From Candidatus Brocadiia bacterium (GTDB lineage: Bacteria > Planctomycetota > Brocadiia > CAIUPP01): a stretch of 64,000 bases of DNA. Below the pieces are notes generated by a model. The model was given only the letters and a program-made list of their open reading frames with translations. It did not search any database and had not been told where the DNA came from. The stretch lies in contig JBEKCB010000012.1 in NCBI GenBank assembly GCA_050015075.1, positions 1 to 64,000 on the forward strand, written 5' to 3'. Positions 13,775-16,665 of the stretch are shown here, in pieces. Made by a program: the position numbers and the translations under genes. How positions within the stretch are numbered: the first letter of the stretch is position 1; the number at the start of each line of letters is the position of its first letter.

Positions 13775-13803
13775 ATCATAACCGAGCGGTTATAAAAATG
13801 CAA
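13775..13803 (-). promoter_or_regulatory. sigma70 promoter with an overlapping palindromic operator
   Basis: Minus strand TTGCAT-17 nt-TATGAT; perfect palindrome ATAACCG-AG-CGGTTAT at 13778-13793. Confidence 0.7.
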
Positions 13804-13820
13804 GCGAAAAATACGCGCTC

Positions 13821-13869
13821 ATAGTGGCGCCATAAGACGTTATTTCGTATACCTTTACGGATGCGCTAC
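13821..13869 (+). repeat. Degenerate GTAG-type REP doublet
   Basis: ATAGTGGCGCC...TTCGTATACC...CGCTAC aligns with the copies at 43790, 48932, 52881 and 56034. Confidence 0.7.
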
Positions 13870-13895
13870 GACCGGCATGCCGTGGCTTGTACTCC

Positions 13896-14018
13896 GTCAT
13901 TCCCAGCAGAGCGAGGAATCTCACACGCACCACGCCGGCGACGGTTCAGCGCATGAGATGCTTCGCTGCGCTCGGCATGACGCGGCTTGTATTGATGCGT
14001 GTTATTCATCGGACAGTA
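13896..14018. repeat. REP-like palindrome (GTCATTCC...GGAATCTC / GAGATGCTTCG...ATGAC) plus MITE right end
   Basis: Inverted arms at 13896-13922 and 13955-13981; 3' tail ending GGACAGTAC matches the 32.4-kb copy. Confidence 0.8.
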
Positions 14019-14344
14019 CACCAGCCGCCGGAAATCGGCGAATTCGCGCAAGGCCGTTTCTGGCGCCGGCTAACGGAGGGCTGTCCATTCCGGCCATTGG
14101 CTAAGCCGGTCAGAATTCTTGTCCCCTCAGGCGCGTGAGGCCCGCGCATGGGCGTATCGTGTTCCAGAGCAGCCACAAAACCATTTGAAAGCGGGCGCTA
14201 TAAGCGTAAAATGCTGTCGGCGGGAAGGACAGCCGACGACGGAAACGTCATCGGAAGGCGAAAGGGGAAGGCAATAATTTGGTGACTGCGGGGCTGTTGA
14301 AAAAGGCATCGGAAGAGAGGCCGCTCGCCCCGTGTCTCCGCTAC

Positions 14345-14406
14345 GTCATTCCCGCGCAAATGGGAATCCAGGCTTTCGGCGTATGGATTCCCGCATTCGC
14401 GGGAAT
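14345..14406. repeat. REP-like palindrome split by the IS; its right arm is completed by GAC at 15716-15718
   Basis: GTCATTCCCGCG...GGGAATCCA...TGGATTCCC...CGCGGGAAT|GAC; removing the IS restores a perfect 12-bp outer arm. Confidence 0.85.
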
Positions 14407-14485
14407 GAAAATATGAAAGCGCGACTCCTGCCCGTGAGGTAAACTCACGGGTGTCATCACCTTCTAAGAGGTAAGGAGTCGCGCC

Positions 14486-15565
14486 ATGAAAGAGTATATC
14501 TCTTTCGACTCGCACAAGCACTATACGTTGGCCGAGCGGGAGGACGTGGAGACCGGACGGACGCGGCAGTGCCGAATCGCTCATGCGCGCGGGGCGATCC
14601 GGGAGTATCTGCGCCGATGTGAACCGGGGACGCCGGTGGCGGTGGAGGCGACGGCGAACTGGTACTGGATCGTCGAGGAAATCGAGGAGGCCCGATTGCG
14701 GCCGCTGCTGGTCCATCCTCGAAAGGCGAAGCTGATGATGGGGCTGATCAACAAGACCGACTCTCTCGACTTGCACGGGCTGAACCGGCTCCAGCGCAAC
14801 GGCACGCTGCCGACGGTGTGGATCCCGCCGGCGCAGCTTCGAGACCTGCGGGAGTTGACGCGCGTGCGGATGGTGCTCGCCCGGCATCGCACGCGGATGA
14901 AGAACCGGATTCAGGCGACGCTGAGCAAGTACGGGCTTGTCGTGGAAGGCTTCAGCGACCCGCATGGAAAGCGGGCGCGCGCGGAGATGAACCGGCAGAT
15001 CGCCCAACTGCCTCCGCAGGCGCGGTACGTCACGGAAATACTCTGCGCGCAGCTCGATTTTGTCGAGGGGCAAATTCACGAGCAGGAGAAACGTTTGAGG
15101 GCGCTCGTGCCGATCACCCCGGAAATCCAACTGCTGATGAGCCTGCCGGGGATCGGAGTGATCCTGGGAGCGGTCTGCGCGCTGGAGATCGGAGCGGTCA
15201 GCCGCTTTCCGAGCGCCGAGCACCTGGCCGCCTACGCCGGGACCACCCCGCGCGTGCACTCCAGCGGAGACAAGACGCGCTACGGCGGCCTGCGGCCGGA
15301 CGTGAACCGCTATCTGCGCTGGGCCTTCATCGAAGCGGGCCACTCGACGGCGCTCAACAGCGAGCGCCGCAGCGAACGTCATGTCAGCCGGCTCTACCGC
15401 AGGCTGCGCGCGCGTCGGGGCCATTACAAGGCGGTAGGCGCGGTGGCCCGACACCTCGCGGAGGCGTCTTACTATGTCCTGAGCAAAAAGGAGCCGTATC
15501 GAGACCCGGCCCTCCACACGGAGGGCGGGCAAGCTTTGGCGCCAGGTCGAACCAGGGAGGTGTAA
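14486..15565 (+). CDS. IS110/IS1111 DEDD recombinase (transposase)
   Basis: SFDSHK, VEAT, KTDSLD, PGIG, AYAGTTPRVHSSG and AVARHL motifs; AAGGAG RBS. Confidence 0.96.
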   Translation: MKEYISFDSHKHYTLAEREDVETGRTRQCRIAHARGAIREYLRRCEPGTPVAVEATANWYWIVEEIEEARLRPLLVHPRKAKLMMGLINKTDSLDLHGLNRLQRNGTLPTVWIPPAQLRDLRELTRVRMVLARHRTRMKNRIQATLSKYGLVVEGFSDPHGKRARAEMNRQIAQLPPQARYVTEILCAQLDFVEGQIHEQEKRLRALVPITPEIQLLMSLPGIGVILGAVCALEIGAVSRFPSAEHLAAYAGTTPRVHSSGDKTRYGGLRPDVNRYLRWAFIEAGHSTALNSERRSERHVSRLYRRLRARRGHYKAVGAVARHLAEASYYVLSKKEPYRDPALHTEGGQALAPGRTREV

Positions 15566-15697
15566 GCGCGGTTGTGTCATGAGCCTTCCGGCTCGAGGAA
15601 TGAATGCGACACACCTCTCGGACATTTTCATGCCCCTTTGAGGGCGAAGAGATGACTCGGGTTTGACCCGAACGAAAAACGGTCTCGACCGCTTGAC
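15566..15697 (+). ncRNA. Predicted bridge RNA / seekRNA of the IS1111-type element
   Basis: Two guide-hairpin-guide modules: TGTCAT and GGAATGA match the two target strands; ATTTTCAT and AGAGATGA match the two strands of the circle junction. Boundaries are approximate. Confidence 0.8.
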
Positions 15698-15776
15698 AGT
15701 CGCGCTTTCAGAGATGACAAAAAGACTTCTTCAACAGCGCCACCGTCCCTGATTCTTCGGAAACGGATTGAGTGCC

Positions 15777-16412
15777 ATGTCATCCGGGCCGGCCTCTTGG
15801 CGAACGCGGAAGTGGAGGGAATTCCGCGACCTCTGGATAAACGGTCCGGAGGGGCGCGTCCTGCGTAACGCAGTGAATGTTCCAAAGTGGTTCTATCAGC
15901 AATTGTATCTGGAGAACTTGCGACGCGCGCCCTATATTGCGGGCGTGGCTCGATATCGCTTCGAGCGTAAAGCTGGCAGATTGCTGACATGGTTGCTGAT
16001 CTTTGGGGGATTCTGTGGCTTAGTCTGCTATTTTTGGCATGCCGAGCACTGGAATGGCGGCTATACTCTCGGTGTGATCCTCGGCGGTTTACTTGTTCTC
16101 TGGGTGGTGGTTGCGGGGATCGCGGACGAGCGATACGGCTATGAACTGTCGCTTGATGCGCGCCACCGAACGGTCACAATGTGGCAGCGCGGGCTGTTGG
16201 GCGAAAAAAGGCGAACCTTTGCGGTGCTGCAGGCGGCGGAGCCCACTGCCGAACGTGTTGCGTATACGACGGGCAGCTGGGGCACGCGGCGGGTTTGGGG
16301 TGTATTCCTCTCTTGTACCGAAGGCCCAGTGCTGTTGTGGGCGGCGGATCGCGAGGAAGATGCCCGTGAGGAGGCGCAACGTGTCTCTGCGCTGCTAAGA
16401 GCAGAGGGGTGA
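15777..16412 (+). CDS. Hypothetical membrane protein with two TM helices
   Basis: ORF with two hydrophobic segments and lower GC than its neighbours; start uncertain. Confidence 0.55.
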   Translation: MSSGPASWRTRKWREFRDLWINGPEGRVLRNAVNVPKWFYQQLYLENLRRAPYIAGVARYRFERKAGRLLTWLLIFGGFCGLVCYFWHAEHWNGGYTLGVILGGLLVLWVVVAGIADERYGYELSLDARHRTVTMWQRGLLGEKRRTFAVLQAAEPTAERVAYTTGSWGTRRVWGVFLSCTEGPVLLWAADREEDAREEAQRVSALLRAEG

Positions 16413-16665
16413 ACGGCACACGAAAGGCAGTCTCGATTATATACGGATACACGGTAAGACATACAACCTAGGCGACTAGCCGAACAAACCGCCGCGGCAT
16501 GCTGCTTCGTCCGCGACGAAGCCCTGGGCGAAGAACGGCGAGATGCAGCTCGCGCTGGACTTTTGGATGTGGTTCCAGCCGTAGAAGCTACTCATGGGCG
16601 AGAGATGGTCAGCACTATATCTTTCTCTCTCGTGTAGGCCATCTCGTTGCGGCGTAATCGGGCCT

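Follow-up and report, generated by a model that had tools for sequence, protein, structure and literature searches.

A 64,000-nucleotide stretch of DNA from a Candidatus Brocadiia bacterium of peat (contig JBEKCB010000012.1, positions 1 to 64,000; hereafter the window) carries on its forward strand, at 14407–15713, an insertion sequence of 1307 bp, or 1309 bp when one copy of its dinucleotide core is counted. That IS110 and IS1111 elements recombine DNA under RNA guidance has been known since 2024, and such recombination is now under development as a tool for genome editing. We conclude that the element in the window is very probably an IS110-family insertion sequence of the IS1111 type with its own bridge (seek) RNA in its 3′ non-coding end. 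Four observations carry this reading: the anatomy of the element, the family membership of its protein, the covariation of the helices in its RNA region and the covariation of its guides with the flanking DNA. The RNA-guided class is already known (PMC11187229, PMC11208160, PMC11208158), and the element is a further member of a large environmental clade.

The boundaries of the element were read base by base, and the junction coordinates, ends and module segments proposed in a first-pass annotation of this DNA were all found to be correct. At the left junction, CGCGGGA (14398–14404) is followed by the AT core (14405–14406) and by the left end of the element, GAAAAT (14407–14412, + strand), which is the right donor half-site. 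At the right junction, CAGAG (15709–15713) is followed by the AT core (15714–15715) and the right target flank GACA (15716–15719). Terminal inverted repeats are absent, and the short core is present once at either junction. A subterminal inverted repeat is exact over 13 bp (13/13), with its left arm TGAAAGCGCGACT (14414–14426, +) 7 nt inside the left end and its right arm AGTCGCGCTTTCA (15698–15710, +) stopping 3 nt short of the right end. The non-coding stretches around the open reading frame (ORF) measure 79 nt on the 5′ side and 148 nt on the 3′ side, and the RNA region lies downstream of the ORF. Subterminal inverted repeats of 7–17 bp are given as marks of the IS1111 group (PMC11208160), and a long right end carrying the RNA separates this group (PMC11187229). 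The IS1111-type layout proposed earlier was thus recovered. The homologous elements are 1264–1546 bp long (57 loci), their conserved motifs run from GA(A/T)..ATATGAAAG at the first to TTTCAGAG at the last, and the longest exact inverted repeat in 62 tabulated homologs is 7–13 bp. The left-end hexamer among 68 loci was GAAAAT in 43, GAATAT in 14 and another word in 11.

The sole long ORF between the junctions (14486–15565, +) encodes a transposase of 359 amino acids (aa), an IS110-family DEDD recombinase, and is preceded by a Shine-Dalgarno sequence, AAGGAG (14472–14477, +), 8 nt ahead of the ATG. The protein matched Pfam PF02371 (Transposase_20; E 3.1e-22, 79.2 bits against a cut-off of 21.3), Pfam PF01548 (DEDD_Tnp_IS110; E 1.2e-10, 41.8 bits against 29) and NCBIfam NF033542, 'IS110 family RNA-guided transposase' (210 bits against 140). 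All three scores exceed their cut-offs, which bears out the earlier family assignment. The protein has the complete catalytic set, Asp/Glu/Asp/Asp with the serine of G..P....SG; D8, E54, D92, D95, G252, P255, S260 and G261 are invariant in a 10-sequence alignment of the window protein and nine relatives. The closest structure in the PDB was that of the IS621 transposase (E 3.1e-12). Aligned with the IS621 chain, residues D8, E54, D92, D95 and S260-G261 fall on its IEAT, NKTDxxD and ESG motifs, and the catalytic roles of the aligned residues are known from IS621 (PMC11208158). The previous description of the protein as compact was not upheld: its relatives are about 351 aa long (exactly so in six of the nine aligned, against which the window protein has an 8-residue insertion near the C-terminus), and the size of IS1111-family transposases is stated as 330–350 aa (PMC11187229).

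Relatives of the element are numerous. A protein search returned at least 3934 proteins at E ≤1e-40 among 8000 candidates scored, and the only name given by the sources of the best 120 of these 3934 matches was 'transposase'. In species-representative genomes, 90 candidate stretches yielded 16 loci, 11 of which are elements at 48–66% identity; their hosts are Acidobacteriota, Nitrospirota, Chloroflexota and other metagenome-assembled genomes. A protein-alignment scan of metagenome contigs gave at least 497 relatives among 599 stretches, and 80 of these, at 63–86% identity, were retained. Five of 40 related genomes had a match at E ≤1e-30, with only one of the five (G008, 58% identity) in the same clade. 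There was no plasmid-borne relative above about 32% identity, and the transposases of IS5075 and IS4321 showed 22.5% identity over 86% of the window protein. The clade to which the element belongs is large, unnamed and mostly environmental.

For the comparative analysis, 105 sources were scanned and 81 had the pattern of the RNA region. The 24 pattern-negative sources included distant relatives, cut contigs and elements that have the modules or ends and yet miss the pattern (L006 and L019, for example). The removal of the exact duplicates L032, L049, L066 and L090, and of L082 with its misfitting 5′ part, left 76 distinct sequences over 151 columns. Guides were taken from the alignment columns and flanks from end patterns at each locus, and the flank counts comprise only those loci with the end found by these patterns, 68 on the left and 65–68 on the right. 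In one source (L064), two insertions stand close together: about 200 nt past the right end of the first copy, behind another CTCGGAAT target, the left end of a further element of this type begins (L064:1618-1646).

The 3′ non-coding end contains two modules of parallel build, in both of which a hairpin separates a 5′ guide from a 3′ guide. In the target loop, the 5′ guide TGTCAT (15575–15580, +) is complementary to the top strand of the core and right target flank (ATGACA). It is followed by hairpin P2 (GAGCC/TTCC/GGCTC, 15581–15594, +), by GA (15595–15596) and by the 3′ guide GGAAT, which matches the left target flank and core and runs into a triplet, GAA (15602–15604), identical with the left end of the element (guide and triplet together 15597–15604, +). 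In the donor loop, the 5′ guide ATTTTCAT (15624–15631, +) is complementary in 8 of 8 positions to the top strand of the core and left end. Behind it are hairpin P3 (GCCC/CTTTGA/GGGC, 15632–15645, +), GA (15646–15647) and the 3′ guide AGAGAT, which matches the right end and core and is followed by the triplet GAC (15654–15656), identical with the right target flank (together 15648–15656, +). The longest core-spanning matches within 15566–15697 were 7 nt for the target top strand, 6 nt for the target bottom strand and 8 nt each for the donor top and bottom strands. Singly, these lengths were reached in 659, 1880, 133 and 124 of 20000 mononucleotide shuffles, in the same order; jointly, they were reached in none. 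The four guides that the first-pass annotation had described as spanning the AT core are present. TGTCA at 15575–15579 is also complementary to a −35-like TGACA at 15694–15698, and the two are paired in the single-sequence minimum-energy fold; this complementarity is probably a by-product of the GACA target.

The guides lie in a conserved structure that extends from 15557 to 15670. The target-binding domain of the RNA (15557–15617, +) is formed by helices P1, P1b and P2. The basal helix P1 (15557–15563 with 15611–15617, +) spans the stop codon (15563–15565) and has double changes at six of its seven pairs, with 94.9% of alignment cells paired. P2 (15581–15585 with 15590–15594, +) has double changes at all five pairs and 94.7% of cells paired, while P3 in the donor module has them at three of four pairs with 99.7% of cells paired. 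P1b (15567–15570 with 15605–15608, +) does not vary except in its last pair, where G-U is once replaced by A-U. P4 (CGGG/TTTGA/CCCG, 15658–15670, +), behind the donor loop, has one pair with double changes and 92.1% of cells paired. Over the 76 sequences and 23 pairs, 96.2% of 1747 cells are standard pairs, and double changes occur in 15 of the 23 pairs (158 cells). In the controls, shuffled alignments were 86.5% paired and alignments with the 3′ partners slid by 1–3 columns were 27–49% paired; none of 500 shuffles matched the observed value on any measure. The consensus from RNAalifold and the count on the specified structure concur. The covariation signal comes chiefly from P1 and P2, and P1b and P4, which hardly vary, add little to it. 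No Rfam family matched 13800–16300 at E ≤1. Taken with the 65–68 flanks per guide class, covariation in the 76 homologous RNA regions supports the two-loop guide RNA proposed before.

The guides were compared with the DNA that they would recognize. The target 3′ guide was identical with its flank at 247 of 336 positions in 42 unique pairs, when shuffled pairings gave a mean of 175.6 and a maximum of 201 (0/5000 as high), and each of its last six positions matched in 30–42 of the 42 pairs. There are 16 distinct target 3′ 5-mers among the loci; 50 of 68 loci have a 5-mer equal to their own left junction, and 35 of 68 are exact over six positions. The target 5′ guide was identical with its flank at 490 of 650 positions (shuffled mean 415.0, 0/5000); it equals its own right flank over the last 6 nt in 60 of 66 loci, over the last 7 nt in 34 and over the last 8 nt in 17, and is at chance level beyond 8. 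The donor 5′ guide, in 29 unique pairs, agreed with the left end at 190 of 232 positions (shuffled mean 178.9, maximum 189, 0/5000). It tracks the left end, with GAAAAT accompanied by ATTTTCAT and GATTAT by ATAATCAT, and its positions 2, 3 and 5 are weak in other clades. The donor 3′ guide is almost without variation, as is the right end, and the pair is therefore of little use for covariation. As a check that takes phylogeny into account, we also examined ten non-overlapping sister pairs with scaffolds at least 85% alike and different target 5-mers; of the 14 positions that differ, 10 have both flanks in agreement with the guide of their own element. The guide argument rests on internal segments that equal host DNA beyond the element, in many different words. 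The first-pass annotation had named unrelated insertion sites, and guides that do not covary with their flanks, as refuting outcomes, and neither was observed: the relatives are inserted where the sequence fits the guides of each, and guides vary in step with flanks.

One clade (L004, L071, L073, L075, L079, L084-L086 and L100) has the donor 5′ guide AACTCCAT with the left end GAAAAT. Donor recognition on the left-end side must be looser or different in this clade, because just three bases, the last three, match.

The element is inserted in a repeat of its host. Its left flank (14345–14406, no strand assigned) is a paired palindrome resembling a repetitive extragenic palindrome (REP), with a left hairpin at 14345–14369 and a right hairpin at 14385–14406, and is interrupted after GGGAAT; the right hairpin is regained with GAC (15716–15718) when the element is removed. 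The uninterrupted target 12-mer, CGCGGGAATGAC, occurs 42 times in the organism's own 4.64-Mb genome of 64.7% G+C, and CGCGGGAATGACA, which is CGCGGGAATGAC with the following A, occurs 19 times. The restored target suggested earlier is accordingly a real genomic sequence. Allowing single-base stem variants and reading by eye, 40 of the 42 listed copies of CGCGGGAATGAC close a hairpin of the GGATTCCCGC....GCGGGAATGAC type, and two copies (C31 and C46) are without the GGATTCCC arm immediately 5′. The restoration of the target is based on paralogous copies of the repeat, which carry the uninterrupted word. An exact empty site for the locus was not found: the same-genus genome G001 lacks the entire 13812–16656 and has 177 bp in its place between outer flanks at 95% identity, and G002–G004 matched neighbouring genes only. 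The preferred target appears to be the tip of the REP-like palindrome, GGAAT/GACA, and the element accounts for one interrupted REP-like repeat of the host genome. The target word of the first-pass annotation stands in a modified, effective form, GGAAT plus GACA, with the target-top guide adding just 3 nt past the core.

The copies of the 12-mer mostly form inverted pairs, and the REP-like family is composed of two inverted GTCATTCCCGCG....CGCGGGAATGAC hairpins about 58–78 nt apart (C1:154013/154071 and C6:133045/133104, for example), and a conserved ...GAGCATTTTTCAACAGCCCC tail stands behind some copies. Besides the REP unit and the element, 13812–16656 contains two other multi-copy repeats and a 214-aa ORF (15768–16412). 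The 177-bp replacement in G001 carries an inverted CGTAATC-rich repeat. Dispersed repeats at 13896–14006 and 14117–14305 have about 30 and about 5 matches in G001, respectively, at 71–87% identity, and the former starts with GTCATTCC, as the REP unit does.

Several observations weigh against the reading of the element as a functional RNA-guided system. The single-sequence fold of the RNA is ordinary (z −1.53, with 14 of 200 shuffles as good). A helix closing the donor module was sought as pairing of the sequence ahead of the donor 5′ guide with that separating P4 from the right repeat arm, and was rejected: only 7 of 51 elements beat 95% of their shuffles, and the window version has 4 bp and is equalled by 87% of shuffles. 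Such a helix may be present in some clades (CTCCGG/CCGGAG, GCGAAT/ATTCGC) and is not family-wide. The shuffle controls leave sequence relatedness in place. Natural insertions show one mismatch to the 6-nt target 3′ guide at 32 of 68 loci and two or more at 1 of 68, four of the 14 sister-pair positions are off their guide, and in several clades the donor 5′ guide fits the left end in the last 3–5 nt only. The element is present as one copy in a 93.6%-complete genome, in which the RNA model has one match (126.5 bits). Finally, that the conserved structure acts as an RNA and binds the transposase is predicted from relatives studied by experiment.

The single copy bears on an alternative in which the anatomy is as described but the copy, intact in appearance, has lost its mobility in the present organism and persists as a resident fossil, contrary to the activity proposed earlier. 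It is consistent with such a fossil that one element and one RNA copy are found despite 41 GGAATGACA sites in the genome, and that a consensus scan found no sigma-70-like site within the integrated element. Nevertheless, the ORF is full-length and encodes all catalytic residues, the inverted repeats are perfect, all four guides fit their own flanks or ends without mismatch over the lengths given above, and the family model gives the RNA a score of 126.5 bits. The relatives are mostly on 1.2–2.5 kb contigs, which is typical of multi-copy elements. In the metagenomic run X18, a contig bears a right end closely similar to the one in the window (over 15632–15721 it differs in 3 letters and has 2 gaps) and continues into a different REP-like flank, and this also argues against immobility. 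We therefore consider a fossil unlikely, while it remains the alternative to be taken most seriously. With all parts intact, it is plausible that the copy in the window is still mobile, and the 'probably active' of the first-pass annotation is weakened accordingly.

The locus itself was present in peat-metagenome runs; besides seven entries flagged as possible sources, nine further runs of nine studies contained at least half of the sampled words. In all contigs of four runs, neither the empty-site joint (14404–15716) nor the circle joint of right end and left end was found, a result that is uninformative because contigs drop rare forms. A loose end in run X19 has a related left end behind a different flank. 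A joint of 14425 to 14777 in X19, with a 21-letter side and at 90% likeness, was set aside as the sequence of another organism. An RNA-library run (X22) gave one 215-nt contig, 14300–14514, and such a contig is no proof of transcription.

The bases behind the core in the two 3′ guides deserve separate treatment. The first-pass annotation had taken GGAATGA (15597–15603) and AGAGATGA (15648–15655) as ordinary guides on the substrates, the former for the target and the latter for the donor. Both segments were confirmed at these positions. Since the core is followed by GA on the target (GACA) as well as on the donor (GAAAAT), the first two bases suit either interpretation. However, both 3′ segments fit the integrated junctions better, over 8 nt from left flank through core to left end and over 9 nt from right end through core to right flank, and it is the third base that is decisive. 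In the target loop the triplet reads GAA (64 loci) or GAT (4); in all 68 it is identical with the first three bases of the left end of its own element, and its third base never agrees with the right target flank. In the donor loop the triplet reads GAC (59) or GAG (6) and reproduces the right target flank at 65 of 68 loci (the exceptions are L043, L063 and L102), and its third base never agrees with the left end. Moreover, the change from GAA to GAT tracks the change from GAAAAT to GAT-type left ends in 4 loci, and the change from GAC to GAG tracks the flank in 6. The crossed pattern is that of the handshake guides of IS621, in which each loop matches the DNA of its partner, the target loop that of the donor and the donor loop that of the target (PMC11208158). 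From the sequences, the bases after the core in both 3′ guides are better read as handshake guides, and it is improbable that they are ordinary substrate guides. The GA after the core is thus better assigned to handshake triplets, GAA and GAC, that match the recombinant junctions and not the substrates.

The notion that the internal matches are DNA-level features, such as transposase-binding copies of the ends, or chance, with the protein alone picking the target, draws on single 6–7-nt matches, which are not rare (659 and 1880 of 20000 shuffles), and on an 8-nt donor-top match in one window of the coding region, but it can hardly be sustained when the internal segments track host DNA outside the element and sit in fixed loops between helices kept through double changes, and when related elements require the RNA for transposition (PMC11187229, PMC11208160).

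The right-junction core is AT at all 68 loci. At the left junction, 57 of 68 loci have AT, 9 have GT and 2 have CT, and at 67 of the 68 this dinucleotide is also the one written in the target 3′ guide. At loci with a GT or CT left junction (among them L030, L035, L040, L045, L047, L048, L053, L063, L068 and L095), the first core base agrees with that of the target 3′ guide in 10 of 11, and the right junction and the other guides keep AT; the other three guides have an AT core almost always. Tentatively, and as a reading somewhat less likely than not, we propose a very large, unnamed environmental IS1111-type subfamily with a short bridge RNA of about 115 nt, an AT core, 3-nt handshakes behind the bottom-strand-pairing guides (the mirror of IS621 relative to tnp) and a first target core base set by one guide alone. 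If this proposal is true and the window copy is active, the element would be a naturally diversified, ready-parsed scaffold for programmable recombination, with core and handshake rules that would be undescribed so far for the IS1111 type.

A −35-like TTGACA (15693–15698, +) would lie 17 bp from GAAAAT (14407–14412, −10-like) across a circle junction, such that circularization would form a TTGACA-17-GAAAAT promoter. TTGACA at 17 bp is found in 34 of 69 loci, and a sequence within one mismatch of TTGACA at 15–20 bp in 64 of 69. Junction promoters have been described for IS110/IS1111 elements (PMC13604230). In the 5′ untranslated region (UTR), RNAalifold on 50 left ends predicted a long-range helix of seven pairs between GCGCGACTCC (14419–14428) and GGAGTCGCGC (14474–14483; 14419–14483 overall, +). 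GCGCGACTCC is the inner part of the left repeat arm, and the helix covers the Shine-Dalgarno sequence. Its pair 19/103 is AU in 18, GC in 10, CG in 8, GU in 2, UG in 1 and AC in 11 of the 50 left ends. The helix may dampen translation, or the copy on the Shine-Dalgarno side may be a third transposase-binding site.

The sequence of events that we infer is as follows. The element would excise as a circle joining CAGAG-AT-GAAAAT, and the promoter formed at the circle junction would drive the transposase gene and then the RNA downstream, which would begin at the helix spanning the stop codon. The first internal loop of this RNA would bind the target, TGTCAT pairing with the top strand of AT-GACA and GGAAT with the bottom strand of GGA-AT, and the second module would bind the circle junction via ATTTTCAT and AGAGAT. 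The DEDD/Ser recombinase would then exchange strands at the AT core. The triplets GAA and GAC match the partner DNA and would pair only after strand exchange, like the handshake guides of IS621.

The element does not introduce a new principle. It is a cleanly parsed natural example with coordinates for every functional segment. The comparative set of 76 RNAs and 65–68 flanks per guide class shows the guide positions used in nature (one side uses about 5 nt and a 3-nt handshake, the other 6–8 nt) and gives an indication of handshake pairing in the IS1111 type as well.

The closest known systems include the IS1111-type elements with seekRNAs. Like the element, ISEc11, ISPa11, ISKpn4 and ISPst6 (PMC11187229) have a DEDD transposase, inverted repeats in subterminal position and, 3′ of tnp, a long non-coding region; in sequence they are distant from it. 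The seekRNAs of this type also have the same guide order, in which the complement of the top strand is 5′ of the complement of the bottom strand and the two overlap at the insertion point (PMC11187229). The 148-nt non-coding region falls within the range of the long seekRNA forms, 148–172 nt (PMC13604230). For the seekRNAs, target matches are described (PMC11187229), whereas a separate donor module and handshake triplets are resolved here by covariation.

The bridge RNA of IS621 (PMC11208160, PMC11208158) likewise has two modules of 5′ guide, hairpin and 3′ guide that recognize the target and the circle junction, and all of its guides include a 2-nt core. IS621 also has crossed handshake guides (PMC11208158), and the title of a reference describes it as REP-targeting. 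It differs from the present element in several respects. The RNA lies here in the right end, downstream of tnp, whereas that of IS621 lies in the left end; the core is AT here and CT in IS621; and, in the orientation of tnp, the handshake bases adjoin the bottom-strand-pairing guides here and the top-strand-pairing guides in IS621. There is no conserved helix closing the donor module here, in contrast to IS621, and the two proteins align well in the C-terminal domain only. The RNA layout appears to be that of IS621 when the DNA is read in the opposite orientation, and this fits the reversed guide order between the IS1111 and IS110 groups (PMC11187229). The ISPpu9/ISPpu10 type of Pseudomonas putida (PMC12288879; named in PMC11208160), which we liken to the element by description only, also combines insertion into REP sequences with a gene for a small RNA located 3′ of the transposase gene. 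ISPpu9 has extra orphan copies of its RNA (PMC12288879), whereas the genome studied here has one RNA copy.

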